From Kordiimonas sp. (lineage in GTDB: Bacteria; Pseudomonadota; Alphaproteobacteria; Sphingomonadales; Kordiimonadaceae), in the NCBI GenBank assembly GCA_965199355.1, contig CBDARB010000011.1, positions 148,588 to 212,587 on the forward strand: a stretch of DNA of 64,000 bases, in the 5' to 3' direction. Within the stretch, counting starts at the first letter, position 1. Each line of letters starts with the position of its first letter. The position numbers were made by a program, and so were the translations under genes. Shown in pieces: positions 6,076 through 57,724 of this stretch. The notes under the pieces are model-generated. The model was given only the letters and a program-made list of their open reading frames with translations, was not told the DNA's origin and ran no database searches.

Positions 6076-8001
6076 GTGAGCAACACGTCAGAAACTCCAT
6101 TGCTTGATGGTATCGAGACACCAACAGACCTTCGGAAGTTGCCGAAAGACCAGTTGCAGGTGCTTGCTGATGAGCTACGCACCGAAATTATCAATGCGGC
6201 TTCTGTCTCTGGCGGGCATTTTGGCGCTGGCCTTGGCGTTGTGGAACTGACCGTTGCGCTTCACTATGTTTTTAATACCCCTGATGACAGATTGATTTGG
6301 GACGTGGGTCACCAAGCCTATCCGCATAAAGTGCTGACAGGCAGGCGTGAAGGCATCCGGTCTATCCGCCAACCTGGTGGCCTTTCGCCTTTCACCAAGC
6401 GTGGTGAAAGTGATTATGACCCGTTTGGGGCAGGGCATTCTTCCACGTCAATCAGTGCGGCGCTTGGTATGGCGGTCGCTAACAAGCTTGCCGGTATTGA
6501 TAGCCGGGCTATTGCGGTGATTGGCGACGGTGCCATGAGTGCCGGTATGGCTTATGAGGCGATGAATAACGCGGAGCAAGCTGGTAATCGGCTTATCGTC
6601 ATTTTGAATGATAACGATATGTCAATTGCGCCAGCGGTTGGCGGTCTTAGCGCTTATTTGGCGCGTATCATCAGCTCCGAGACCTTTTTGAGCCTGCGAG
6701 GGTTTGGCAAGAAGATCATTGAGATGTTGCCGAAGCCGCTTGCTGATCGTGCCCGTTTGGCTGAGGAAACTGCGCGCGGCATGGCTGCTGGTGGGGGTAC
6801 TCTGTTTGATGAACTTGGTTTCTATTACGTCGGCCCGATTGACGGCCACAATATGGACCATCTTCTGCCTGTGCTTGAGAATGTGCGAGACGCACAGGAT
6901 GGCCCCATTCTGGTGCATGTGGTAACGGAAAAAGGGCGTGGCCACCCCTTTATCAAACCTCATCAGGAAAAATATCATGCTGTGCCGCAGTTTGATCTGG
7001 TTACCGGTGAGCATAAGAAATCAACCCCGAAAGCACCGTCATACACCAGTGTTTTTGCTGAGGCTTTGATCGACGAAGCCTCTCGCGATGATAAAATCGT
7101 AGCGATCACAGCGGCTATGCCGTCAGGCACCGGTATTGATAAGTTTGAAAAGGCATACCCCGACCGCACATTCGATGTAGGTATTGCTGAACAGCATGCG
7201 GTAACATTTGCTGCTGGACTGGCGGCGGAGGGGTTCAAGCCGTTTGCGACTATTTATTCCACCTTCTTGCAGCGTGCTTATGATCAGGTCGTGCATGATG
7301 TGGCGGTGCAAAACCTGCCTGTACGCTTTGCGATTGATCGGGCGGGCCTTGTGGGTGCGGACGGGCCAACACACGCCGGCACGTTTGATATCACGTATCT
7401 AGCCAGCCTGCCGAATATGGTTGTGATGGCTGCGGCTGATGAAGCTGATTTGAAACACATGGTAGCAACCTGTGCGGCACTGAACGATCGCCCGTCTGCT
7501 GTGCGGTATCCGCGCGGTGAAGGTGTTGGTGTTGAACTGCCGGAGCACGGCGAGCCACTTGAAATCGGCAAGGGGCGCATTGTCAAGTCGGGCTCTAAAG
7601 TTGCGATACTGTCGCTTGGCTCTCGCCTCTCTGAAGCTCTGGAGGCCGCTACTCAACTGGAGGCGCGCGGTCTGTCAACCACCGTTGCAGACGCACGTTT
7701 TGCCAAACCAATTGACGAGCAGTTGATCAGAGATTTAGCAGCAAGCCATGACCTGCTGCTGACAGTTGAGGAGGGTTCCATCGGTGGGTTTGGTGCCCAT
7801 GTGATGGACTTCTGTGCCGATGAGGGCATCCTTGATGGGCGTCTTCGCGTAAGGGCTCTCAAGCTACCTGATGTGTTTATCGATCATGGCAAACCTGCTG
7901 ACATGTATGAAGAGGCGGGCCTCAATGCTTCGGGCATCGTATCCGCTGTTCTTAAGGCGTTGGGTCACAACAGTTTTGACCAAACTGCCGTCAATAAGTA
8001 A
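6076..8001 (+). CDS. dxs: 1-deoxy-D-xylulose-5-phosphate synthase
   Basis: [51 protein letters not shown]. Confidence 0.97.
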
Positions 8002-8021
8002 TCCCTTGGGGGAGAGCGCTG

Positions 8022-8765
8022 GTGCCTAAAATCCGGGTTGATGTTGCGCTTGTAGATCGCGGCCTCGTTGAAAGCAGGTCCAAGGCGCAGGCGCTTGTGA
8101 TGGCAGGTGTCGTATTTTCCGGCGAGACAAAAGTCCTTAAAGCAGGTCACCAGATAGCCGATGATAAACCCCTCGAAGTACGCGGTAAGGACCACCCGTG
8201 GGTAAGCCGTGGCGGCTTGAAGCTGGAAAAGGGCCTTGCGGAATTTGCTGTCGATCCCAGCGGTTTGATTGCTATTGATGTCGGGGCGTCAACCGGCGGT
8301 TTTACAGATGTGCTGTTAACTGGCGGTGCAAAACATGTTTATGCGGTTGATGTGGGGCGGGGGCAATTGGCCTGGAAGCTCAGGAATGATGATCGTGTTA
8401 CCGTTCTTGAAAAAACAAACGCCCGTTATTTGAACGACGAACAAATCCCTGAACCGATTGATCTTGTTGTATGCGACGCAAGTTTCATCTCTCTCAAAAC
8501 GGTTCTTTCCGCTGCGCTTGGCTTCACTAAAGGGGGGGGCAAGCTCATCGCTTTGATCAAGCCTCAGTTCGAGGTTGGTAAAGACAACGTCGGCAAAGGC
8601 GGTGTTGTGCGGGACCCGGCCCTTCATCAAGCGGTATGCGATGATATTAGAGATTGGCTTGATGCCTTATCGGGCTGGCGCGCAGTTGGCATTACCGAAA
8701 GCCCGATTAAAGGGCCGGAAGGGAACATAGAGTTCCTGATTTATGGCGAGAAGTCAGGTGACTAA
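8022..8765 (+). CDS. tlyA: TlyA family rRNA methyltransferase
   Basis: N-terminal S4 domain, WVSRGGLKL, IDVGASTGGFTD, LIKPQFE, SPIKGPEGNIEF. Confidence 0.95.
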   Translation: MPKIRVDVALVDRGLVESRSKAQALVMAGVVFSGETKVLKAGHQIADDKPLEVRGKDHPWVSRGGLKLEKGLAEFAVDPSGLIAIDVGASTGGFTDVLLTGGAKHVYAVDVGRGQLAWKLRNDDRVTVLEKTNARYLNDEQIPEPIDLVVCDASFISLKTVLSAALGFTKGGGKLIALIKPQFEVGKDNVGKGGVVRDPALHQAVCDDIRDWLDALSGWRAVGITESPIKGPEGNIEFLIYGEKSGD

Positions 8766-10035
8766 CCAGATTACGGTGACAATTGATACGCTTGGCGCAC
8801 GCGGTGACGGCATCGGGCAGCATGATGGTAAACCTGTGTATGTGGCGGGAGCCTTGCCGGGCGAAAGCATCTTGGTTGATGTGACAGAGGTTAAAAGAAG
8901 CGGCACGGTTGGTAGGATCAATGAAGTTCTTGAACCATCGCCTGACCGACGGGAGGCGCCATGCAAGCATTTTGACCGTTGCGGCAGTTGTCAGCTCCAG
9001 CATTTGGGGGAAGGGCTTTATGCAAACTGGACGCAGAGCCGTGCAGCGTTCGCGCTGAAACAGCAGGGCATTACCGATGTGCCTTTCGAAAATGCTTTTA
9101 TTGTTCCCCCCGCCAGCAGAAGACGTTTAGCGCTCAAAGCGTTGAAAACTTCAACCAAGCTTGTGCTTGGTTTTAATAAGGTATCGAGTCATCAAATTGA
9201 GGACATTGATCATTGTTTGGTGGCGGACGTGCAGCTGACAGATGTGTTCGAACCACTCAGAAACCTGTTATGGCAGGCTTTGCCAAGTTCAATGCTATCG
9301 ACAATTCACCTAACCCGGACGGATAGTGGCATTGACCTCGTCGTGGATACCTCTGTAGCGCTTGATTTGTCGACACGCGAACTGTGTACCGAGTTTGCGA
9401 ATGCGCACGATATCGCGTCTTTTCATTGGAACCATTCAGGCTTTCTTGATCCGGTCGCCATTCGCCGCGAAGCCGTCATGAAGTTTGCAGGGGCGAGATT
9501 ACCCGTTCCGCCTGCTGCCTTCTTGCAGGCGACTAGCGAAAGCCAGAAAGCCATGGTGGAAACGGTTTTGTCGGCCTGCGGCGAGACAAAGCGTGCCGCC
9601 GATCTATTTTGTGGTATCGGTACATTTACGTTTCCGCTTGCGCAGCGTTTTCAGGTATTGGCGGTGGAAGGGGCCAAGGATGCTTTGGCTTCTGTGGAAG
9701 CCGGTCGAAACACCGCCGCAGCTGCAGGGGTAAATCTGAAGCAGATTGTCACCAAACATCGCGATTTATTCCGCAGGCCGCTTTCTGAGAAAGAACTGGC
9801 CGGATTTGACGTTGTGGTGATGGACCCGCCCCGTGCGGGTGCTGAAGCTCAGGCGAGAGAACTCGCGAAGTCAGGGGTGAAGAAAGTTGTCTCCGTCTCA
9901 TGTAACCCCAATACTTTTGCCCGCGATGCCCGCATCCTGATTGATGGTGGCTATGAGCTGAAAATGGTAAAGCCTATTGACCAGTTCCTTTGGTCTACCC
10001 ATCTAGAATTGATCGGCATATTCCAAAGGCCCTGA
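8743..10035 (+). CDS. rlmD: TrmA/RlmD family RNA (uracil-5)-methyltransferase with TRAM domain and 4Fe-4S cysteines
   Basis: PCKHFDRCGSCQLQH, FLQAT, DLFCGIGTF, DPPRAGA, SVSCNPNTFARD, DQFLWSTHLE. Confidence 0.8.
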   Translation: MARSQVTNQITVTIDTLGARGDGIGQHDGKPVYVAGALPGESILVDVTEVKRSGTVGRINEVLEPSPDRREAPCKHFDRCGSCQLQHLGEGLYANWTQSRAAFALKQQGITDVPFENAFIVPPASRRRLALKALKTSTKLVLGFNKVSSHQIEDIDHCLVADVQLTDVFEPLRNLLWQALPSSMLSTIHLTRTDSGIDLVVDTSVALDLSTRELCTEFANAHDIASFHWNHSGFLDPVAIRREAVMKFAGARLPVPPAAFLQATSESQKAMVETVLSACGETKRAADLFCGIGTFTFPLAQRFQVLAVEGAKDALASVEAGRNTAAAAGVNLKQIVTKHRDLFRRPLSEKELAGFDVVVMDPPRAGAEAQARELAKSGVKKVVSVSCNPNTFARDARILIDGGYELKMVKPIDQFLWSTHLELIGIFQRP

Positions 10036-10067
10036 TAGTGGCCTATGCTTGTCGACAGGGGGATATT

Positions 10068-10682
10068 ATGAACCGAAAGAAAATCAATACGGATTCGATC
10101 ATTGCACTCGCTGCTATGTTGACGGCGGTGGTGGCGGTCGTTGTTGCTGTTGTTCAAACCAACATTATGCGGGAAGAAGCGACCGCAGAACGCGATCATG
10201 CGCGGCTTTCGGTTTTGCCTGCCGTTTCTATCTTATACAGCAATGGGCATAATGATGATGGTCTGTTGTTTTTCGAACTTAATGTTTATAATCAAGGTCT
10301 TGGACCGGCAAAAATTGAAGATTTTTCAGTCTATTACAAAGGCGAGAAAGTCAGAAATCAGCGTGCGTGGGTGCAGGCTGTTGCCGGGGATGTGGAAGCC
10401 ATCGAGCAATATGAGCAAGCGCCGGTCATTAACAATAGCTATGTGGGGGAGGGCCGTATCATCCCTGCTGATGGGACGCTTACCCCAATTCATGTGGCAC
10501 ATAGTGAGTTGGCGTCAAAACTTGAAAAAGCACTCGCGGACACTGAGTTTTCTATCTGTGTCTGCTCATTCTACGGTGATTGTCAGCGTTTGATCGGTCA
10601 AAATCCTCAAACGGAGCCCGTCGCCACATGCGTTGGGTACCGGGAGGCCGAGCCTATAGCTGAACCCTTCGTTAGAAAGTGA
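10068..10682 (+). CDS. Hypothetical membrane-anchored protein
   Basis: ATG at 10068 after GGGGGA; one hydrophobic helix IIALAAMLTAVVAVVVAVV; four C-terminal Cys. No family recognised. Confidence 0.65.
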   Translation: MNRKKINTDSIIALAAMLTAVVAVVVAVVQTNIMREEATAERDHARLSVLPAVSILYSNGHNDDGLLFFELNVYNQGLGPAKIEDFSVYYKGEKVRNQRAWVQAVAGDVEAIEQYEQAPVINNSYVGEGRIIPADGTLTPIHVAHSELASKLEKALADTEFSICVCSFYGDCQRLIGQNPQTEPVATCVGYREAEPIAEPFVRK

Positions 10683-10748
10683 GTTTGCCGTAAATTAGAC
10701 AGTTTGTGTCACAGGTGGTAAGCTCCGTTAGAAGTTGGGGATTATCAT

Positions 10749-11186
10749 ATGGCTTTGCATACTATTGTTTACAGCAGTAGAGAGGCTCACGAGTTTAGTG
10801 AGCAAGAGATTGAAGCGCTTCTGGTGGGAGCGCGCAGTCACAACTCTTCCGTCGGGATAACAGGCATATTATTCTATTTTGGCTATGTTTTTTTCCAGGT
10901 TCTGGAAGGCCCGGAAGAAGAGGTGCGTGATCTTTACCAAAGGATTGCTGCGGACCCTCGCCATAAGGATATTACGCTTCATGTGGATGAAGCTGCTCAA
11001 GGCAGACTGTTTGGGGATTGGTCCATGGCCTATACGGTTACGGATAGGGAAACCATTAGCCAGACGGACAATGTGGTTCAATTGTTTCAGCAGAAATCGA
11101 ACCATTTCTCATCAGCGTATGTTGACGCCCGCGAAGCCAAACTAATCTCCATGATTTCGCTGGTTGCTAAAACTATCGCGGCTTAA
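10749..11186 (+). CDS. Stand-alone BLUF domain protein (blue-light FAD sensor)
   Basis: IVYSS (Tyr), ARSHN (Asn), GITGIL, FFQVLEG (Gln), DPRH, FGDWSM (Trp/Met). Confidence 0.9.
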   Translation: MALHTIVYSSREAHEFSEQEIEALLVGARSHNSSVGITGILFYFGYVFFQVLEGPEEEVRDLYQRIAADPRHKDITLHVDEAAQGRLFGDWSMAYTVTDRETISQTDNVVQLFQQKSNHFSSAYVDAREAKLISMISLVAKTIAA

Positions 11187-11196
11187 GTAACCGGAT

Positions 11197-12156
11197 TTAC
11201 TCGTTCAGTAAGAAGCTCCGAACTTCCGCGGCGCTTTCTGTAGGCACTTCCTCCATAGGTAGGTGGCCAACACCTTCGAAAACCTTAAGTTTACTGTTTT
11301 CCAGCTGCTCATGCATTGCTTGGGCTGTTCTAACCCTGATTAACTTATCCTCATCTCCCCAAATAATCAGGGCAGGAATTGTTATGCGTGTGATGTCTAG
11401 CTCTCGGCTACCATTTTCGCGGTACCATGCAAACCGCAAACCAGTGGCGCGCCTGTTGCCGGGGTGACGGGCCAGTTCCCAGTAACGGTCGACCATGCTT
11501 TCTGTAATGAATGACTGGACGCTGGTGCTTTTTCGTAGTCCCTCCGCGGCAAGGCTGCGCGGCGTGATATTTTCCAGAATCCAGCTTGTGTACCAGCGGC
11601 CTGCAAGCTTGAATGCAAGCGGGTAGTCCGTATCTTCAGCATTTTCTAGTGGTGGCCTGATGCCTGCCGCATCCACAAGGATCATATGTGTCACATCGTC
11701 TGGGTGCTTGAGGGTATAATCGAGCGTTACCCCGCCGCCCATACTGTTTCCACCCAGAGCAAATGGCGGTAACTCCAACGCCTCGGTGAATTCCTTTAGA
11801 AACGAGGACATGCCTTCATAGGTATAATCATCACTTGGTATCGGGCCGGTAAGGCCGTGTCCGGGCAGGTCGACGGTAATGATGAAAAAGTCGTCGGCAA
11901 GGTCGCTTACCCATGGCTCCCACGTGTGCAATGAGGCGTTGGAGCCGTGCAGCAGCAATAGCGTTTGGCCTTCGCGGTTTCCCTGCATTCGATAATGGGC
12001 TGTTGCGCCGGAAGGAAGGTCAATGAAATCAGAAGCACCAGCGGCATATTTTTCTGCCAGAACGTCGTGCGGAATATCCGGTGTCCAGGCAGCATAGATA
12101 AATATCCCCACAACAAGGAGCGCAACACTTGCCATATATTTGAGCCATTTGAGCAC
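11197..12156 (-). CDS. Alpha/beta hydrolase (lipase/esterase) with N-terminal membrane anchor
   Basis: LLHGSNASLHTW, DLPGHG, GNSMGG nucleophile elbow, WGDEDKLI, GVGHLPMEE. Confidence 0.9.
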   Translation of the reverse strand: MLKWLKYMASVALLVVGIFIYAAWTPDIPHDVLAEKYAAGASDFIDLPSGATAHYRMQGNREGQTLLLLHGSNASLHTWEPWVSDLADDFFIITVDLPGHGLTGPIPSDDYTYEGMSSFLKEFTEALELPPFALGGNSMGGGVTLDYTLKHPDDVTHMILVDAAGIRPPLENAEDTDYPLAFKLAGRWYTSWILENITPRSLAAEGLRKSTSVQSFITESMVDRYWELARHPGNRRATGLRFAWYRENGSRELDITRITIPALIIWGDEDKLIRVRTAQAMHEQLENSKLKVFEGVGHLPMEEVPTESAAEVRSFLLNE

Positions 12157-12157
12157 G

Positions 12158-12787
12158 CTAGTTCTCCTGCTGCTGTAGCTCCGTTTCCCTAGCCTTTAAT
12201 ACTGTTTCAAGCGATGCCATGACGCTTTTCTCCATCCACCATGTTTCGTTCAGCATTTCAAAGTAGGCATCCAGAATTTTTTTGGGGTCTTCTTCATAAT
12301 TTACCAGCGTTTGTGCATCGCCGTTCTGTTGCCAGCGAAACTCGTGGGCTTCAAATAAAGCGAATACCTGAATAAGTGCACTCAGCCGTTCCAATTCGAT
12401 GTAGCTAATCAGATTGGTGAGTTTTGCAATTTCCCAATTGGCATCTGTCAGCAGAGCAGGGCGCATAATGCCTTCCCGATACATAGCAAGAAAAATGCGC
12501 TCATAGTCGGCATCCGTCAGGTCTTGGCTAGCTTTGGTTTCGGCGCGAATAAATTCCAGATGCTTGGAATGATGCTGGTGCGCTACCTTCAGTCGCTCTA
12601 GGTTTTCTGAAAGCTCAATGTATAGCTTGTCGAGAAGCTCCGTTTTTCGCTGTTCACGTTCGTGGTCTTCCCACCATTCATTGATGGCAAGGGCAAGCAG
12701 GATTGCAATGATAACGGCGGTTATCTCACGGCCAGCACTCCACGCGATAGCTTTCAAGTTTCTTGATGTATGTTCACCGTCAGCCAT
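12158..12787 (-). CDS. Hypothetical membrane-anchored protein
   Basis: EITAVIIAILLALAINEWWE hydrophobic helix followed by a charged helical region; stop 1 nt before the hydrolase start. Confidence 0.65.
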   Translation of the reverse strand: MADGEHTSRNLKAIAWSAGREITAVIIAILLALAINEWWEDHEREQRKTELLDKLYIELSENLERLKVAHQHHSKHLEFIRAETKASQDLTDADYERIFLAMYREGIMRPALLTDANWEIAKLTNLISYIELERLSALIQVFALFEAHEFRWQQNGDAQTLVNYEEDPKKILDAYFEMLNETWWMEKSVMASLETVLKARETELQQQEN

Positions 12788-12841
12788 TCTCTACCCCGAT
12801 CTGGCATCAGGTTAGTTTTGCTGCCGACTAAATGTCCAGCA

Positions 12842-13915
12842 CTATCCGCATTGGGCGCGGTGCATCATCATATGGTCTGCCAGCACAATTGCCATCATGG
12901 CTTCAGCAATTGGCACGGCGCGAATGCCCACGCAGGGGTCATGTCGCCCTTTGGTAACAACATCAGTTGCTTCACCGTCGCGTGTAACACTTTGACGTGG
13001 TGTCAGGATAGAGCTTGTTGGTTTGACAGAAAACCGGCCCACGATCTGCTGGCCGGTAGAAATTCCACCCAAAATACCGCCTGCATTGTTTGACAGGAAT
13101 ACAGGCTTGCCATCATTGCCAGGGCGCATCTGGTCAGCGTTTTCCTCGCCAGTTAACGCGGCAGCTTCCATGCCAGCGCCAATTTCGACGCCTTTGGCCG
13201 CATTAATGCTCATGAGTGCGGTTGCCAGGTCTGCGTCCAGTTTACCGTATACCGGCGCACCCCAGCCAGCGGGTACACCATCTGCCACCACTTCAATGAC
13301 CGCACCGATTGAACTGCCTGCCTTGCGTACTTTTTCAAGCTCAGTTGCCCAGTTTTCAGCAGCTACTGCGTCTGGGCAAAAAAGAGGATTCTTTCGAGCT
13401 TCATTCCAGTCCAGCCGGTCACGGTCAATTTTGTGGAGACCCATTTGCACCATGCCAGCGCTGATTTTGACGCCTTCGCCCAAAATTTTCCGGGCGACAG
13501 CCCCAGCTGCCACGCGGGCAGCGGTTTCACGGGCGCTTGAGCGTCCGCCACCCCTGTAGTCACGAATGCCATACTTTGCGTCGTAGGTGAAATCAGCATG
13601 GCCAGGGCGATAGCTTTTGGCGATATCGCCATAGTCTTTTGAGCGCTGGTCGACATTTTCAATCATTAGCTGGATTGAAGTGCCTGTTGTCTGTCCTTCA
13701 AAAACGCCAGACAGGATTTTTACTTCGTCAGGTTCTCGGCGCTGCGTCGTGTATTTGGATTGCCCCGGGCGGCGTTCATCCAGATATTTCTGGATGTCAG
13801 CCTCGGTTAGCGGCAAGCGCGGCGGCACGCCGTCAACGGTGCAACCAATTGCTGGTCCGTGACTTTCGCCCCAGCTTGTAAACCTGAACAATCTTCCAAA
13901 CGTATTGAAGGACAT
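12842..13915 (-). CDS. aroC: Chorismate synthase
   Basis: [43 protein letters not shown]. Confidence 0.97.
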
Positions 13916-13916
13916 G

Positions 13917-13946
13917 AAATTCCCAGACTATAAATTCCCAGACTAT
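13917..13946. repeat. Perfect 15-bp tandem duplication AAATTCCCAGACTAT x2
   Basis: Read directly at 13917-13931 and 13932-13946; spans the fabI stop codon and the aroC ribosome-binding site. Confidence 0.95.
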
Positions 13947-14758
13947 TCGATGAGAGAAACAACGGCCTTCATGGAAGCGTCATCAGTTGGCATACAGGTT
14001 GTGTTAAACCCGGCATCCACATAGTGCGTCTCACCGGTTACGCCTGATGACAGATCAGACAACATATAAAGACCTGCACCCGCAACGTCATCAAGGGTGA
14101 TATTGCGCTTTAGGGGTGCGTTTTTCTCGTTGTATTTCAATAGCATGCGGAAGTCACCGACGCCAGATGCAGCCAGTGTACGCATAGGGCCAGCAGAAAT
14201 GGCATTGACCCTGATACCTTGTTCGCCAAGATCGCGCGCCATATAGCGTGTGCTCGCTTCAAGGGCAGCCTTTGCAACACCCATAACGTTATAGCGCGGC
14301 ACCACTTTCTCTGCACCATAATAGCTGAGTGTCAGCAGGCTTCCGCCTTCGGACATCATTTTTTCCGCGCGCTGCGCCACAGCGACAAAACTGTAGGCAG
14401 ACACATTCATGGTCATCAGGAAGTTATCGAGCGTTGTATCGACATAGCGGCCTTTAAGCTCGTTTTTATCGGAGTATCCAATCGCATGGACCACAAAGTC
14501 GAGTTTGCCCCATTTGGCTTGCAGTTTTTCAAACATGGCGTCGATAGACGCGCCATCAGACACATCGCATTCTTCAAGGAAATCTGCGCCCAGTGAGGAA
14601 GCGAGCGGCTCCACACGTTTTTTTAATGCGTCGCCAACGTATGTAAAAGCAAGCTCTGCACCCTGTTCAGCACAGGCTTTGGCGATACCCCAGGCCATTG
14701 ATTTGTCGTTTGCGACACCCATGATCAGGCCACGTTTGCCTTCCATAAGCTTTGTCAT
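13943..14758 (-). CDS. fabI: Enoyl-ACP reductase
   Basis: LIMGVANDKSMAWGIA, VVHAIGYSD, YNVMGVAKAALE, NAISAGPMRTLAA. Confidence 0.96.
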   Translation of the reverse strand: MTKLMEGKRGLIMGVANDKSMAWGIAKACAEQGAELAFTYVGDALKKRVEPLASSLGADFLEECDVSDGASIDAMFEKLQAKWGKLDFVVHAIGYSDKNELKGRYVDTTLDNFLMTMNVSAYSFVAVAQRAEKMMSEGGSLLTLSYYGAEKVVPRYNVMGVAKAALEASTRYMARDLGEQGIRVNAISAGPMRTLAASGVGDFRMLLKYNEKNAPLKRNITLDDVAGAGLYMLSDLSSGVTGETHYVDAGFNTTCMPTDDASMKAVVSLIE

Positions 14759-50146: not shown

Positions 50147-51226
50147 GTGCCAGATGTTTTGAGGTTTCGAGCGTACCGTATGGATATTGTTCAGTCTGTT
50201 CGTGGTTTAGGGCACATTTTTTTCTGGTACGATAACTGGCGTCTTGCTGCGCGCGTGCGGTCCCGTATGGTCGCTGCCGGGTTTGTGGAGCATCCGCTGG
50301 ATGATGAGCGGGTCCATTGTTTTCTGTGCGATGATTTCGAAACCTGCCTGCCTGTTCTCGCGGCTTTTTTGAATGATCGCGAAAAGAGGCAAATTTCGGT
50401 CCTATTCTCCGAATCAGCCCGACCAAAAGTCTTCGAGTTTGGCCGTATAAAAACTGTGGCCGAGCACGAGACGCAGCTTCGGGCTCGCTGGCTTGGTGAT
50501 ATGTTGATGGAACGGCGCTATCGCTCGCTCATGCAGCCAATTGTTTATGCATCCAACCACAACCGTGTAATGGGCTATGAGTTTTTGATCCGTGGCCTCC
50601 ACACTGATGGGACCGATGTTTCGGCTCCAACCCTGTTTGGAACAGCGGAAGCTTGCGGCATGCTTTATGCGCTCGATATGGCGGCGGGCGAAAGCGCAAC
50701 ACGCACAGCCCGTATGCATGAACTAACGGAAGACGTGTTCGTTAATGTGTTGCCGCGCACTATTGGTGATGAAGATGGTCTGGACGCTTGGCTGCAGGCA
50801 GTTATGGCGGCAGCAGAAGTTCGCCCCGAACAATTGGTTTTTGAGATCGTTGAAAGCCAACAGCTTGGCGATGTCAGAATTCTGCGCGGCTTGGTGGACA
50901 AGCTGCATGATCAGGGTATTCGGGTTGCACTTGATGATTTTGGTAGTGGCTTCAACAACCTTGTAGGGCTCGTTGAAGTTAGGCCCGATTATATCAAGAT
51001 TGACAAGTCTTTGGTGATTGGTCTGACGCTTGACCCCAGAAAAAGTAACCTTGTTGCTAACTTGGTCGACTCAGCCAAAAAGTCGGAAATTCAGGTGATT
51101 GCAGAAGGGGTGGAGGATGCCCAAACAGCGGAGGCGCTTGTCAGTCTCGGAGTAGATTATCTGCAAGGGTATCACCTTGGATACCCGGAAGATGCACCGG
51201 TTCAGAAAAACCTGATAGCGGTTTAA
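50147..51226 (+). CDS. EAL-domain c-di-GMP phosphodiesterase
   Basis: QPIV, YEFLIR, FVNV, FEIVE, ALDDFGSG, YIKID, AEGVE, YLQGY. Confidence 0.9.
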   Translation: MPDVLRFRAYRMDIVQSVRGLGHIFFWYDNWRLAARVRSRMVAAGFVEHPLDDERVHCFLCDDFETCLPVLAAFLNDREKRQISVLFSESARPKVFEFGRIKTVAEHETQLRARWLGDMLMERRYRSLMQPIVYASNHNRVMGYEFLIRGLHTDGTDVSAPTLFGTAEACGMLYALDMAAGESATRTARMHELTEDVFVNVLPRTIGDEDGLDAWLQAVMAAAEVRPEQLVFEIVESQQLGDVRILRGLVDKLHDQGIRVALDDFGSGFNNLVGLVEVRPDYIKIDKSLVIGLTLDPRKSNLVANLVDSAKKSEIQVIAEGVEDAQTAEALVSLGVDYLQGYHLGYPEDAPVQKNLIAV

Positions 51227-51690
51227 TCCTCGGCAGCTTCATTTTGGCCTGCATTCAGTTTGATGATCAACGCGTCTAGCTGGCTCTTTTCCACATCGCT
51301 GAAATGTTCGAGCAGTTTTGCTTCATAATCAAGCGCCAGCGGGATGATTTCACGGTAAATCTGCTGGCCTTCGTTTGAAAGGGCAATAACCGATCGTCTG
51401 CGATCCTCGTTCGAGAAGTGACGTTCAATGCGACCTGCTTCCAGCAGTTTATTAACGGCTCGCGAGACAGCAACTTTGTCCATCGCGGTCCGATCCGCTA
51501 CTTGTCCGGCGGACAAATCCGGTTCCTCACCCAACACTGCCATCACTCGCCATTCGGGCAAGGTTAGCTGAAAACGCTCCTCATAACGATCGGCGATTGA
51601 GCGGCTGATTCGGTTTGAAAGCACCGAAAGACGGTAGGGTAGAAAATCTGCCAACAATAAAGCGTCTGATTTTTCAATATGTTCGGTCAT
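51223..51690 (-). CDS. MarR family regulator, divergent from hppD
   Basis: FLPYRLSVLSNRIS, WRVMAVL, MDKVAVSRAV, DRRR. Confidence 0.92.
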   Translation of the reverse strand: MTEHIEKSDALLLADFLPYRLSVLSNRISRSIADRYEERFQLTLPEWRVMAVLGEEPDLSAGQVADRTAMDKVAVSRAVNKLLEAGRIERHFSNEDRRRSVIALSNEGQQIYREIIPLALDYEAKLLEHFSDVEKSQLDALIIKLNAGQNEAAED

Positions 51691-51821: not shown

Positions 51822-52910
51822 ATGGCGGATTTGTTTGAAAACCCGATGGGCTTGTGTGGGTTTGAATTTGTTGAATTTGCGGCTGCTGAAAAAGGCATTC
51901 TGGAGCCGGTGTTTGAAATGATGGGCTTTACCAAAGTTGCCCGTCACCGTTCCAAGGACGTGGAGCTATGGCGTCAGGGCGACATCAATTTCATCACCAA
52001 CTATGAGCCAAAGTCTCCGGCTGCTTACTTCGCGGAAGAACACGGCCCGTGTGCAAGCGGCATGGCGTTCCGCGTAAAAGATAGCCGCGTTGCGTATGAG
52101 CGTGCGATTGAGCATGGCGCACAGCCCGTTGATGTGCCCACCGGACCGATGGAGCTTAAGCTTCCTGCCATTAAGGGTATTGGCGGTGCGATGTTATACC
52201 TGATCGATCGTTTTGAAGAAGGTAACAGCATCTATGATATTGATTTCGAATGGATTGAGGGTGTTGACCGCAATCCAAAAGGTTGTGGTTTCAATGTTAT
52301 CGATCACCTGACCCACAATGTTTACCGTGGCCGGATGGATTATTGGGCGAACTATTATGAAACGCTCTTTAATTTCCGCGAAATCCGCTATTTTGACATC
52401 AAAGGCGAATATACTGGTCTTCTTTCACGCGCGATGACCGCGCCTGACGGCTTGATCCGTATCCCGCTGAATGAAGAATCAGGCGGTGGTAACGGTCAGA
52501 TTGAAGAGTATCTGATGCAGTATAACGGCGAAGGCATTCAACATATCGCTTTCTCTTGCGATAACCTGCTGGAGTGCTGGGACCGCCTGAAAGAGCGCGG
52601 CGTACCGTTCATGACGGCCCCACCTGAAACATATTATGCGATGCTTGACGAGCGCCTGCCGGGACACGGCGAGCCAGTGGACGAGCTGAAATCCCGCGGT
52701 ATTCTGTTGGATGGATCAACAGAAGATGGAGACCCACGCCTGTTGCTTCAGATTTTCTCTGAAACAGCGATCGGTCCGATCTTTTTCGAGTTTATCCAGC
52801 GTAAGAAAGACGAAGGTTTCGGGGAAGGTAACTTTAAAGCCCTCTTTGAATCTATCGAACGAGACCAGCTTGCGCGCGGCGTAATTGGCGATAAGGAAGA
52901 CGCTGCTTAA
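51822..52910 (+). CDS. hppD: 4-hydroxyphenylpyruvate dioxygenase
   Basis: [49 protein letters not shown]. Confidence 0.97.
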
Positions 52911-52935
52911 TGCGGCGTCTTTGAAAGGACTGTCG

Positions 52936-53484
52936 ATGAAAATCCAGCGTATCCATCATGTTGCCTATCGCTGCAAAGATGCCAAAGAAACCGTAGAGTT
53001 TTATCAGAAACACCTGAATATGGAGTTTCAACTGGCGTTTGCTGAAGACAATGTGCCGTCTACCGGTGAAGAAGACCCCTACATGCACATCTTCCTTGAT
53101 GCCGGTAATGGCAATGTGCTCGCTTTCTTTGAATTGCCAACCCAGCCAGAGATGGGGCGCGATGAAAATACGCCTGCATGGGTGCAGCATATTGCGTTCG
53201 AAGTGGAAGATATGGACGCGCTTCTAGCCGCGAAAGAAAGCCTTGAGGCAGCAGGGATTGAGGTACTGGGCCCAACCGAGCACACGATCTTCAAATCCAT
53301 CTATTTCTTTGACCCTAACGGTCACCGTCTTGAGCTCGCAACCAATACCGCGAAGCCCGGCATGCTTGACGAGCTTAAGCGGGTAGGGCCGGCGATGCTG
53401 GAAGAATGGTCCAGAACCAAGAAAGCGCCAAGGCACGCAGCATGGTTGCACGGCGAAGGTGAATTTGTACCGCCAAGCGAATGA
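52936..53484 (+). CDS. VOC/glyoxalase-fold protein, candidate non-canonical homogentisate dioxygenase
   Basis: RIHHVAY, YMHIFL, VQHIAFEV, SIYFFDPNGHRLELA. The fold is secure; the function is inferred from context. Confidence 0.8.
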   Translation: MKIQRIHHVAYRCKDAKETVEFYQKHLNMEFQLAFAEDNVPSTGEEDPYMHIFLDAGNGNVLAFFELPTQPEMGRDENTPAWVQHIAFEVEDMDALLAAKESLEAAGIEVLGPTEHTIFKSIYFFDPNGHRLELATNTAKPGMLDELKRVGPAMLEEWSRTKKAPRHAAWLHGEGEFVPPSE

Positions 53485-53532
53485 TTGGCAAGCAATAACA
53501 GGTATTTAGCAAAATATTAGCTAGGGAATTTT

Positions 53533-54540
53533 ATGAAACTTGCATCTCTTAAACATGGTCGTGATGGTAAACTTGTGGTGGTTTCCCGCGATCTAACCCG
53601 TATGGCTGATGCATCAGCGATTGCGCCAACGCTTCAAGCAGCAATTGACGATTGGGACGCTTTGTTGCCGCGTCTGCGTGGCCTATACGAATCCCTGAAT
53701 TCAGGTGCAATGGAAGGTGAAGCCTTTGATGAAGCTGCGTGTGCTTCGCCGCTGCCGCGCGCGTATCAGTGGGCCGATGGGTCAGCGTATGTGAACCATG
53801 TTGAACTGGTACGCAAGGCGCGTGGCGCGGAGATGCCTGCGAGCTTCTGGACTGACCCGCTGATGTATCAGGGCGGTTCCGACACATTCCTAGACCCGCG
53901 CGGCGATATTGTTATGCCGCAAACCGAAGGTTGGGGCGTGGATTTTGAAGCAGAAATCGCAGTTATCACAAACGATGTGCCTCTGGGTGTGGGTGTTGAG
54001 AGAGCAGCGGATCATATCAAGCTGTTGATGCTGGTAAACGATGTGTCGCTGCGTGGCTTGATACCGGCAGAGCTTGGCAAGGGGTTTGGCTTCTTCCAGT
54101 CCAAACCATCCAGCGCTTTCAGCCCGGTTTGTGTAACGCCTGATGAACTTGGTGATGCATGGCGTGACAGCAAGCTGCATTTGCCGCTGGTGTCTCATCT
54201 GAACGGTGACATGTTTGGCAAGCCTGATGCGGGCATAGACATGACATTCAATTTCGCGCAATTGGTTGCTCATGCGGCTAAAACACGCCCGCTGGGCGCT
54301 GGTGCTGTTGTCGGGTCTGGGACTGTTTCAAACAAACTCAATGACGGTCCGGGCAAGCCGGTTGTTGAAGGTGGTGTTGGCTATAGCTGTATCGCCGAAA
54401 TACGCATGATTGAAACCATTGATGCCGGCGCGCCTAAAACACCGTTTATGAGCTTTGGCGACAGGGTTCGTATCGAAATGTTCGATGCGGATGGCGCCTC
54501 TATCTTCGGGGCAATTGAGCAAACTTTGTCGCAGGCTTAA
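53533..54540 (+). CDS. Fumarylacetoacetate hydrolase family protein
   Basis: VDFEAEIAV, LVNDVSLR, FFQSKP, VGSGTVSN. Confidence 0.9.
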   Translation: MKLASLKHGRDGKLVVVSRDLTRMADASAIAPTLQAAIDDWDALLPRLRGLYESLNSGAMEGEAFDEAACASPLPRAYQWADGSAYVNHVELVRKARGAEMPASFWTDPLMYQGGSDTFLDPRGDIVMPQTEGWGVDFEAEIAVITNDVPLGVGVERAADHIKLLMLVNDVSLRGLIPAELGKGFGFFQSKPSSAFSPVCVTPDELGDAWRDSKLHLPLVSHLNGDMFGKPDAGIDMTFNFAQLVAHAAKTRPLGAGAVVGSGTVSNKLNDGPGKPVVEGGVGYSCIAEIRMIETIDAGAPKTPFMSFGDRVRIEMFDADGASIFGAIEQTLSQA

Positions 54541-54544
54541 GGGT

Positions 54545-55189
54545 ATGAAACTATACGGATATTATCGCTCATCAGCTGCCTACCGGGTGAGGATTGCCCT
54601 CAATCTGAAGGGGCTTGAGTATGATAATATCCCTATCAACCTTATACCAGGTGTCAGCGAGCAGAAAAGCGGTGCCTACAAAGCGATAAATCCGCAAGGC
54701 AGGGTACCCTTCTTTGAAGACGGGGCTGTTGCGATTAGCCAGTCTCCGGCAATCCTTGAGTATCTTGAGGAGACCTTCAAGGACGTACCCCTGCTGCCCG
54801 CAGGCACAGCCGACAGGGCGGTGGTGCGGCAGCTCGCAAGCCTTGTGGGGTGCGATATTCACCCCCTGAACAACCTTGAGGTTTTGCAAACTTTGAAGGG
54901 TGATTTTGGGGCAGACCAGCAAGCTGTTGACGGATGGTACCGCAAATGGATTTTAGAAGGCTTTGCTGCCTTGGAGGCATTGGTTGTTAAAACAGCTGGC
55001 CGATACTGTTTTGGCGATACGCCAACGCTCGCAGATATTTATCTGGTGCCTCAGGTATGGAATGCGCGCCGTTTTAAGGTGCCGCTCGAGGCGTTTCCAA
55101 CCATTGAACGGATTTTTGATGCCTGCAATGAGCTAGAGGCATTTAAGCTAGCGGCGCCGGAAAACCAGCCGGATGCACCAGCGAGCTAA
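54545..55189 (+). CDS. maiA: Maleylacetoacetate isomerase (GST zeta)
   Basis: YYRSSAAYRVRIALNLKG, QSPAILEYLEE, CDIHPLNN. Confidence 0.95.
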   Translation: MKLYGYYRSSAAYRVRIALNLKGLEYDNIPINLIPGVSEQKSGAYKAINPQGRVPFFEDGAVAISQSPAILEYLEETFKDVPLLPAGTADRAVVRQLASLVGCDIHPLNNLEVLQTLKGDFGADQQAVDGWYRKWILEGFAALEALVVKTAGRYCFGDTPTLADIYLVPQVWNARRFKVPLEAFPTIERIFDACNELEAFKLAAPENQPDAPAS

Positions 55190-55214
55190 GGGATAATTGG
55201 GAAAGGATGTCAGG

Positions 55215-56096
55215 ATGGAAATCGTAACGCGATTGGGCCGCAAAGTCGAAGTAAACGACGACTATACGATTGACCAGAATTGGGAAGCTTTCACCGCTGA
55301 AGAGCATGACCGCTGGGACAGGCTTTATGCGCGCCAGGGCAAGCTGTTGCCGGGCCGGGCATGTGACGAGTTTATGCATGGGCTTGATGATCTTGAGCTT
55401 TCCAAAAGCGGTATCCCGCATTTTGGCAGGCTGTCTGACAGGCTGGAAAAGCGGACCGGCTGGCGCATTGTGGCCGTGCCAGACCTTGTGCCGGATGAGG
55501 TTTTCTTTGACCATCTAGCTAATCGCCGTTTCCCGGCGGGCAGTTTTATTCGCTCAGAAGCACAGCTTGACTATTTGCAGGAACCCGATGTTTTTCATGA
55601 TGTTTATGGTCATGTTCCTCTGCTGGCGAACCCGGTATTTGCTGATTATATGGAAGCCTATGGCAAGGGCGGTCAGCGCGCCATGGGCCGGGGTGTGCTT
55701 CAGAATTTAGCGAGGCTTTACTGGTACACAGTGGAGTTCGGTCTGATTAACACACCAGACGGCATGCGCATTTACGGTGCAGGTATTTTGAGTTCGAAAT
55801 CAGAGAGTATTTTCTGCCTTGATGATGCGAGCCCCAACCGTATTCATTTTGATCTTGTACGCCTTATGAAGACTGATTACCGGATTGATGATTTCCAGCA
55901 AACCTATTGGGTTATCAATAGTTTTGAAGAGCTTCTTAATGCAACATATCAGGATTTTGGCCCCATCTATGATGAGCTGGAAGCTGATACAACAAGCTAT
56001 CCTGCGGATGCAGTTCTTGATGGTGATACGGTTCACAACAAGGGCACGCAAGCCTACGCCGAAGCTGGCGGCAGGCTTGCGAAAGAAGCAAGTTGA
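55215..56096 (+). CDS. phhA: Phenylalanine 4-monooxygenase
   Basis: YLQEPDVFHDVYGHVP, RLYWYTVEFGL, IYGAGILSS. Start is ATG 55215 or TTG 55197. Confidence 0.96.
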   Translation: MEIVTRLGRKVEVNDDYTIDQNWEAFTAEEHDRWDRLYARQGKLLPGRACDEFMHGLDDLELSKSGIPHFGRLSDRLEKRTGWRIVAVPDLVPDEVFFDHLANRRFPAGSFIRSEAQLDYLQEPDVFHDVYGHVPLLANPVFADYMEAYGKGGQRAMGRGVLQNLARLYWYTVEFGLINTPDGMRIYGAGILSSKSESIFCLDDASPNRIHFDLVRLMKTDYRIDDFQQTYWVINSFEELLNATYQDFGPIYDELEADTTSYPADAVLDGDTVHNKGTQAYAEAGGRLAKEAS

Positions 56097-56123: not shown

Positions 56124-56650
56124 TCAGAATTTGAATTTGAGGTTGAGCTTGGTTTCGTCAACACTTTGAAACGAATTCTCATCGTCACCGCGCCGATATT
56201 CTATTCCGAACGAAGTCGAGCTTGAGCCCGAGTTCAGTAGCCCGATCTCCGCGCCTGCTGTGAAGATAGATTGGTCTTCAACGCGACTTAATATTTCGGC
56301 AAGGTAACGATAGGACGCGCTGAGTTTGAACTTTTTCCATGATAGTGACATGCCCACTTTAGCGCCCAGTCCAAGATATTCTGATGGGTTATTATTGCCA
56401 GCGTTCGCTGACCTAGCCAGCAGAAAATTGGGATTGGTACCTACTTTGTCGATGAACGAACCTTCAAGAATGGTTTGAAAACTTGAGTTTAGCGTCAGGG
56501 CGCCAATTTTGTCGCCTTCAAAGGCATCACCAAAGATACCGTAATGGGGCTTGGCACGTCCTGCTCCGTTTCGGCTTGTCGTGACGGTGGATAGGAAGGG
56601 GGTGTCGTTGCTCCTGATGCAGTAAGCTGTATCTACGGCGTCGCGCCATG
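56124..56650 (-). pseudogene. 3' fragment of an IS-interrupted secreted/outer-membrane protein gene
   Basis: Continues in frame from the 5' fragment once the IS is removed; amphipathic strands and terminal ...KLNLKFKF. Confidence 0.8.
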
Positions 56651-56689
56651 AGGCCTGCGCCATTTTATCAATCAAAAAGGAACAACAAC

Positions 56690-57724
56690 ATGACTGTATT
56701 TATAGGACTAGACGTCTCTCTGGCAAGCACGGCAGTCTGTGTACTGACGGGTAAGGGTGAGATTCTCAGGGAGGCAAAGGTGCCCAGCGAGCCGGCAGCG
56801 CTTGTGGGTTTTGTGCACAGCCTGGGGTGCGATGTCGCCAGCATTGGTCTTGAAGCAGGGCCCCTGTCCCAGTGGTTGTACAAGGGCCTGACGGAAGCGG
56901 GTTTCGAGACGGTGCTGATGGAAACACGCAGAGTGAAGGCCGCGCTGAAGGCCATGCCGATCAAAACAGATCGCCGGGATGCGGAAGGGATTGCCCGCCT
57001 GCTGCATCTGGGCTGGTTCCGGCCAGTCCACTGCAAATCCGTTTCGTCGCAGGAGATACGGGCGCTGCTGACGACCCGCCATGCCATCCAGAAGGCCCTG
57101 AAGGCTCTCGAACTGTCGGTGCGGGGTATCCTGCGCAATTTCGGTCTGAAGATGGGCAAGGTGTCGAAGGGGCGGTACGCGGCACGGGTGCGCGAGCTTG
57201 TGACCGGCAACCCTATGCTGGAAGCTGCCGTCGAGCCTGTCCTGCACGTGCGCGACACGCTGCGCAAGGAGATGGCAGGTCTGGAGAAAAAGATTAAAGG
57301 GCTGGCGACGGCGAACCCGGTCTGTGACCTGTTAATGACCATGCCCGGTGTAGGGCCGGTCGTGTCGCTGACCTTCCTGTCCGCAGTGGATGATCCCGGG
57401 CAGTTCCGCCGATCGAAGGATATCGGTCCATGGGTGGGGCTAACGCCGGGCCGGGACCAGTCGGGGGAACGGGATGTTACCGGCCGCATCACGAAGGCTG
57501 GCGATGTCGGCCTGCGAACCGCCCTGTATCAGGCGGCGACGGTCATGCTGAACGGGGGCAGATCCAACTGGCTGAAAGCCTGGGCGTTGCGTCTTGCTGC
57601 CCTGCGGGGCAAGAAACGTGCAACGGTCGCCCTTGCCCGACGCATCGGTGTGGTGCTGCACCGGATGATGGTGGACGCAACGGTGTTCTGCTTCACCCGC
57701 GAAGAGGCTGTCCGCTCTGTATAA
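56690..57724 (+). CDS. IS110 family transposase/recombinase
   Basis: DEDD RuvC-like residues in FIGLDVS, GLEAG and KTDRRDA; C-terminal TMPGVG and WVGLTP..DQSGE (Ser motif). ATG 56690 follows AAAAGGA. Confidence 0.96.
   Translation: MTVFIGLDVSLASTAVCVLTGKGEILREAKVPSEPAALVGFVHSLGCDVASIGLEAGPLSQWLYKGLTEAGFETVLMETRRVKAALKAMPIKTDRRDAEGIARLLHLGWFRPVHCKSVSSQEIRALLTTRHAIQKALKALELSVRGILRNFGLKMGKVSKGRYAARVRELVTGNPMLEAAVEPVLHVRDTLRKEMAGLEKKIKGLATANPVCDLLMTMPGVGPVVSLTFLSAVDDPGQFRRSKDIGPWVGLTPGRDQSGERDVTGRITKAGDVGLRTALYQAATVMLNGGRSNWLKAWALRLAALRGKKRATVALARRIGVVLHRMMVDATVFCFTREEAVRSV

Follow-up and report, generated by a model that had tools for sequence, protein, structure and literature searches.

The closest described relatives of the protein studied here come from Acinetobacter. 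In A. baumannii no hmgA homologue was found, and a gene located between hmgC and hmgR was reported to code for a ring-cleaving dioxygenase domain of type I (PMC7646211, 2020). Later, an hmgA::Tn2006 insertion was reported to lead to pyomelanin, which was abolished by plasmid-borne hmgA (PMC9431530, 2022); the 'hmgA' of that report is presumably the VOC gene. A paper on Acinetobacter Tol 5 (bioRxiv 10.1101/2025.10.30.684093, PMC13572102) describes a glyoxalase-annotated gene in the homogentisate cluster and, in its own account of the matter, credits Seo, Hwangbo, Kim and Park (Proteins 2025, 93:2150, doi 10.1002/prot.70020) with the demonstration of homogentisate 1,2-dioxygenase function for the A. 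baumannii homologue. The crystal structure 9u42 is an Acinetobacter homogentisate 1,2-dioxygenase according to the title of the PDB entry, and the link between this structure and the function goes through that title and the citing paper. The metal in the crystal is Zn, not Fe. Taking the 2025 work as the Tol 5 paper presents it, the VOC-type class has been recognised stepwise in Acinetobacter, first the gene, then the genetics and finally the structure and the activity, and the discovery belongs there. The preliminary description of our locus, which suspected that such an enzyme may not be new, was therefore right, as the Acinetobacter enzyme was solved and named in 2025. What is useful in the present case is the annotation gap, the extent of the family and the co-occurrence of the VOC protein with cupin hmgA in hydroxylase operons.

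The other described system is the cupin HmgA (TIGR01015/PF04209), represented by HmgA of Pseudomonas putida and by human HGD. It catalyses the reaction that is proposed here for the VOC protein and, like the latter, would stand between HppD and MaiA. Nevertheless, the cupin has an unrelated fold and around 430 aa, more than twice the length of the VOC protein, and it is therefore an analogue and not a homologue.

Our locus lies in a window of 64,000 nucleotides, by which we mean the whole stretch of DNA that was analysed. The open reading frames, together with Pfam and NCBIfam scans, gave one operon on the + strand at 51822-56096, and its genes follow the order that had been read from the sequence beforehand (hppD, VOC, FAH family, maiA, phhA). 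The features are the following:

51223-51690, - strand: MarR-family regulator (PF12802 and PF01047), divergent from the operon
51822-52910, + strand: hppD, 4-hydroxyphenylpyruvate dioxygenase, which makes homogentisate (TIGR01263, 397 bits, cut-off 277)
52936-53484, + strand: predicted VOC-type homogentisate 1,2-dioxygenase, 182 aa (PF00903, 75 bits; 69% identity to PDB 9u42)
53533-54540, + strand: FAH-family hydrolase, 335 aa (PF18288 and PF01557)
54545-55189, + strand: maiA, maleylacetoacetate isomerase, a zeta-class GST (TIGR01262, 279 bits, cut-off 171)
55215-56096, + strand: phhA, phenylalanine 4-monooxygenase (TIGR01267, 344 bits, cut-off 265)

The gaps between the five genes are only 25, 48, 4 and 25 bp, and therefore we consider them as a single operon. 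Regarding the gene starts, the VOC reading frame translates without stops to 182 aa from an ATG at 52936, which is 25 bp past the hppD stop and is preceded, at a distance of 6 nt, by the ribosome-binding site GAAAGGA. We took this ATG as the right start because of that site and because the resulting length fits the 180-183 aa of the homologues and of 9u42. A TTG start at 52885, giving 199 aa, was rejected, as it overlaps hppD and disagrees with the lengths of the homologues. The ATG of maiA at 54545 is 4 bp past the FAH stop, and phhA has an in-frame ATG at 55215 preceded by an AAAGGA site. The hppD of the operon is the single copy in the genome and its maiA is the only intact one, whereas phhB is not in the operon but on contig C10. 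An IS110-family transposase (window 56648-57724) lies around 550 bp downstream of phhA and leaves the operon uninterrupted.

Compared with Acinetobacter, the gene content is similar, since the gene of the Acinetobacter enzyme is also clustered with the homogentisate genes fah, maiA and hppD, in a genome (A. baumannii) that lacks the cupin HmgA. However, the regulator of the Acinetobacter cluster is hmgR/IclR and that of the window operon is probably a MarR protein. Furthermore, the window operon has a FAH gene of the 335-aa type, contains phhA, and is accompanied by a second VOC paralogue elsewhere in the genome. The host is also different, as the nearest named homologues of the window protein belong to Kordiimonas, a marine alphaproteobacterium.

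A phmmer search of the VOC protein against the PDB gave one strong match, 9u42_A (182 aa), with an E-value of 4.5e-78 and residues 3-174 aligned to residues 5-178; the 69% identity extends along the entire chain. The AlphaFold2 model, for which an alignment of 20 sequences was the input, is of moderate quality, with a mean pLDDT of 75 and an N-terminal half that is weak, and consists of two beta-alpha-beta-beta-beta units and a C-terminal helix at residues 143-161. When this model was used in Foldseek, 9u42 was ranked first (E 6e-22, TM 0.71/0.75). The model thus predicts, as in 9u42, a single domain of the VOC fold of about 180 aa that is extended by a helix at the C-terminus. The Pfam matches were confined to the Glyoxalase/VOC clan, and the protein scored far under every curated NCBIfam cut-off. 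This includes the catechol 2,3-dioxygenase model TIGR03211, on which it reached 42 bits, with 320 being needed for membership, and matched only the profile positions 141-265, that is, the C-terminal domain.

Regarding the active site, the preliminary description had quoted the motifs HHVAY, MHIF, QHIAF and RLELA as metal-ligand positions. The four motifs are present and hold H7/H8, H51, H85 and E133. When 20 members of the family are aligned, these residues, as well as H116, Y123 and H130, do not vary, and all of them are identical in 9u42. In a phmmer alignment, the C-terminal domain of the catechol 2,3-dioxygenase XylE (PDB 1mpy) aligns with residues 81-134 of the VOC protein, and H85, E133, H116 and Y123 fall on H214, E265, H246 and Y255 of XylE, respectively. 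We take H214 and E265 to be the iron ligands of XylE, and H246 and Y255 to be its catalytic pair, from the structure of Kita et al. 1999. The stretch from T114 to E133 presumably fits the PROSITE extradiol signature. H8, located at the beginning of the first strand, is expected to be the third metal ligand, and H8, H85 and E133 would then correspond to the 2-His-1-carboxylate triad of the extradiol dioxygenases. Three of the quoted motifs hold these residues, and the fourth holds H51, which is conserved. As the ligand and catalytic residues align and are invariant, the protein looks like a one-domain dioxygenase of the extradiol type and not like a glyoxalase. The VOC fold and the active-site residues are common to the type I extradiol dioxygenases (XylE and the one-domain BphC). 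The differences with XylE are that the VOC protein is single-domain and that its substrate would be a para-diphenol, homogentisate, instead of catechol.

Cupin HmgA had been described as missing from the window, and a search of the genome for hmgA had been proposed. We searched the 4.8 Mb genome (17 contigs, completeness 100%) with TIGR01015 and PF04209, and neither of them had a match at E <= 0.001 anywhere, window included. Regarding the last step of the pathway, the 335-aa FAH protein reached 21 bits on TIGR01266, the eukaryote-type fumarylacetoacetase model of the canonical FahA (cut-off 375), which had no match in the whole genome. The closest structure is 3lzk (E 6e-146), an uncharacterised 'Fumarylacetoacetate hydrolase family protein'. 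Judging from these matches, the protein is a probable fumarylacetoacetate hydrolase of a non-canonical bacterial type.

Thus, the 182-aa VOC protein is, by its sequence, very probably the homogentisate dioxygenase that the genome otherwise lacks. The idea of a non-homologous, VOC-fold homogentisate 1,2-dioxygenase at the hmgA step, put forward from the letters of the window, is supported by the 69% identity to 9u42, the lack of the cupin and the conserved residues. We are confident, although not entirely, that the protein is a one-domain, type I extradiol-like, metal-dependent dioxygenase that carries out the homogentisate dioxygenase step of a self-contained operon for phenylalanine and tyrosine; we infer both its activity and Fe(II) as its working metal. 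PhhA would convert phenylalanine into tyrosine, an aminotransferase encoded elsewhere would give 4-hydroxyphenylpyruvate, and HppD would produce homogentisate. The VOC enzyme would then open the ring to maleylacetoacetate, with the metal bound by H8, H85 and E133 and with H116 and Y123 acting as the acid-base pair. MaiA would isomerise maleylacetoacetate with glutathione and the 335-aa FAH-family hydrolase would release fumarate and acetoacetate, while the MarR protein encoded at 51223-51690 is the probable repressor of the operon. The VOC enzyme would in this way close the apparent gap and leave a complete route from phenylalanine and tyrosine to fumarate without cupin HmgA.

The VOC family is very conserved, with identities of 65-88%. 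The best 120 clusters in a collection of 5.8 billion proteins were 76-89% identical to the window protein, the nearest named ones being from Kordiimonas species, and clustering at 50% leaves essentially a single full-length representative of the family. In a scan with one genome per species, carriers were found in at least 590 species. We examined by tblastn with the window proteins the neighbourhoods of the best 80 of these at least 590 carriers, which come from Alpha-, Beta- and Gammaproteobacteria and from a few other MAGs. The VOC gene was immediately preceded by hppD, on the same strand, in 47 of the 80 loci, and 50 had hppD within 6 kb. The gene for the 335-aa FAH protein followed the VOC gene, within 6 kb, in 47, and maiA was within 6 kb in 38. 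In 21 loci a MarR homologue was found within +/-6 kb, as a rule divergent and immediately upstream of hppD. The exact gene order of the window, including MarR and phhA, appeared in two loci, one in a Kordiimonas MAG and the other in an alphaproteobacterial MAG. In 11 of the 80 loci, a FAD-monooxygenase/DUF2783 gene or an MBL gene adjoins the VOC gene.

NCBI, UniRef and JGI still list the members of the family under the name 'lactoylglutathione lyase family enzyme' or 'VOC family protein'. Their scores stay below the cut-off of every NCBIfam model. Because of this generic naming and of the missing NCBIfam model, automated pathway reconstructions will wrongly call tyrosine catabolism incomplete; the naming may also produce wrong predictions of pyomelanin formation.

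Some members may be fused. The C-terminal domain (residues 599-773) of the metagenomic protein P0125, of 778 aa, is 59% identical to the VOC protein, and P0125 may therefore be a fused form of it. Its N-terminal part of around 600 residues has only a faint Glyoxalase_4 match in Pfam, and no informative extra domains were found in P0125 or in the other candidate fused form, P0263.

The genome has a second VOC copy, at G000:C14:237072-237608 (9058-9609 of locus L009), which is 82% identical to the window copy. Locus L009 corresponds to G000:C14:228000-247000, and the copy belongs there to a second cluster of the homogentisate type, at 6781-14590 on the - strand, with the following features:

L009 13055-14590, - strand: SSF (sodium:solute symporter) transporter
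L009 12015-12974, - strand: MBL-fold protein
L009 9620-11440, - strand: FAD monooxygenase fused to DUF2783, 606 aa
L009 8017-9027, - strand: FAH-family gene, 75% identical to that of the window
C14:235468-235988, - strand: decayed maiA (three pieces; a frameshift and an in-frame gap)
L009 6781-7257, - strand: MarR of the second cluster

Since the second copy is again accompanied by a FAH gene and by a remnant of maiA, VOC-FAH-maiA recurs as a module, and this trio supports the homogentisate dioxygenase role of the VOC protein. Our search of the literature on DUF2783 and 4-hydroxyphenylacetate 1-hydroxylase gave nothing bearing on the hydroxylase module.

At least four genomes have the VOC gene and a canonical cupin hmgA in one operon, together with genes for an MBL protein, a FAD monooxygenase/DUF2783 and maiA (L090 4257-10229; L091 5786-12619; L092 6701-13658; L093 5972-13314). 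This co-occurrence is redundant and unexpected for a pure replacement enzyme. In a tree of 87 VOC sequences, the four cupin-associated proteins group into one long-branched clade. As this clade stands beside cupin hmgA, its members could carry a second activity, which we consider unlikely; it could also apply to the C14 copy of the window genome. The activity may consist in the conversion of the quinol product of the hydroxylase into homogentisate, or in the cleavage of a substituted homogentisate that the cupin enzyme refuses.

A step further, the VOC protein could in general isomerise or rearrange a precursor of homogentisate, for instance an ipso-hydroxylated quinol produced by the neighbouring flavin hydroxylase in clusters of the second type, with an unrecognised enzyme as the homogentisate dioxygenase. 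The operons L090-L093 would fit two different jobs, given that the VOC gene comes right after MBL/FAD-monooxygenase/DUF2783 in the same operon as cupin hmgA, and the long-branch clade points in the same direction. Moreover, HppD, which also has the VOC fold, performs a comparable side-chain shift. However, the hppD-VOC-FAH-maiA operons would then be left without a ring-cleaving enzyme although HppD already supplies homogentisate, both the PDB entry and the citing paper give the Acinetobacter protein, 69% identical, as a homogentisate 1,2-dioxygenase, and the extradiol catalytic His and Tyr are retained. The tree of 87 sequences is also against it, because copies linked to hppD and copies linked to the hydroxylase are mixed on it and the context switches at least 7 times. 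From this interspersion, from the grouping of the two copies of the window genome on the tree and from their 82% identity, we argue for one function for both copies, and a general isomerase seems very improbable to us. We therefore keep the homogentisate dioxygenase as the function of the window protein.

As proposed in the preliminary description, we also examined whether the family and hmgA are anti-correlated. Among 24 genomes of the same genus, the VOC protein was present in 23, the exception being a genome 76% complete, and the cupin in none. Among 16 other genera of the order, 4 had only the VOC protein, 10 only a cupin-like protein, 1 had both and 1 neither. At the level of the phylum, an even draw of 401 Pseudomonadota genomes, each at least 90% complete, was scored for HppD, the tight VOC family (250 bits or more and an identity of 65% or more), the long cupin HmgA and a short cupin of about 380-400 aa. 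The tight family was cleanly separate in this sample from a subfamily with 39-49% identity. The cupins were counted again with TIGR01015, because PF04209 alone under-detects the short form.

HppD was found in 185 of the 401 genomes. These were distributed as VOC only (34), cupin only (128, namely 99 with the long and 29 with the short form), both (15, namely 12 with the long and 3 with the short form) and neither (8). The VOC protein was thus present in 34 of the 42 HppD-positive genomes without cupin and in 15 of the 143 with cupin, so the expected anti-correlation does appear; nevertheless, 15 of the 49 HppD-positive VOC carriers also have a cupin. The nominal Fisher P for this association is overstated because the sampled genomes are related, but the direction of the effect is clear. 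The VOC protein is the sole candidate ring-cleaving enzyme in about one in five of the HppD-positive Pseudomonadota sampled (34 of 185).

The 15 genomes with both enzymes, the database names given above, the weak sequence matches to the FosB, FosA and glyoxalase I families and the fold matches to them would agree with an accessory enzyme outside the main flux (a glyoxalase-I-like or thiol-dependent detoxifier of quinones or of by-products of homogentisate oxidation, or a dioxygenase of some other related diphenol, for instance gentisate or hydroquinone), but this is hardly credible, as the scores are far under the cut-offs (28.9 bits on the glyoxalase I model TIGR00068 with a cut-off of 120, 20.5 on NF050074 with 165, and 42 on the FosB family with 171, none of them enough for membership), the article of Seo et al. 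states in its title that glyoxalase I is mimicked in structure and that the function is not shared, and the genome would be without any homogentisate dioxygenase, yet keeps hppD, maiA and two FAH genes. Actually, what the VOC protein has in common with glyoxalase I and with the thiol transferases FosA and FosB is the size and the paired beta-alpha-beta-beta-beta fold, whereas its context is aromatic catabolism and not methylglyoxal or fosfomycin.

Two minor groups came out of the phylum sample. In 6 of the 8 HppD-positive genomes without cupin or tight VOC, the sole relative was a member of the VOC subfamily with 39-49% identity. We examined four of its loci (L095 7634-8125; L096 7652-8134; L097 7864-8346; L098 7906-8397) and in none of them was hppD, FAH or maiA adjacent, one of them adjoining a FAD monooxygenase; for this reason we do not claim this subfamily as homogentisate dioxygenases.

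The second group is the short cupin, a HmgA-like protein of about 380-400 aa that scored 64-98 bits on TIGR01015 (cut-off 511) and was present in 32 genomes of the phylum sample. We had considered Vibrio cholerae VC1345 (hmgA) as a candidate of the VOC type and dropped it, since the genome sample shows instead the separate short cupin form beside hppD. We regard this short cupin as a probable third form of homogentisate dioxygenase that is under-annotated; it is often directly beside hppD, and in L008 (1549-2373) it is found beside the gene for the 335-aa FAH protein.
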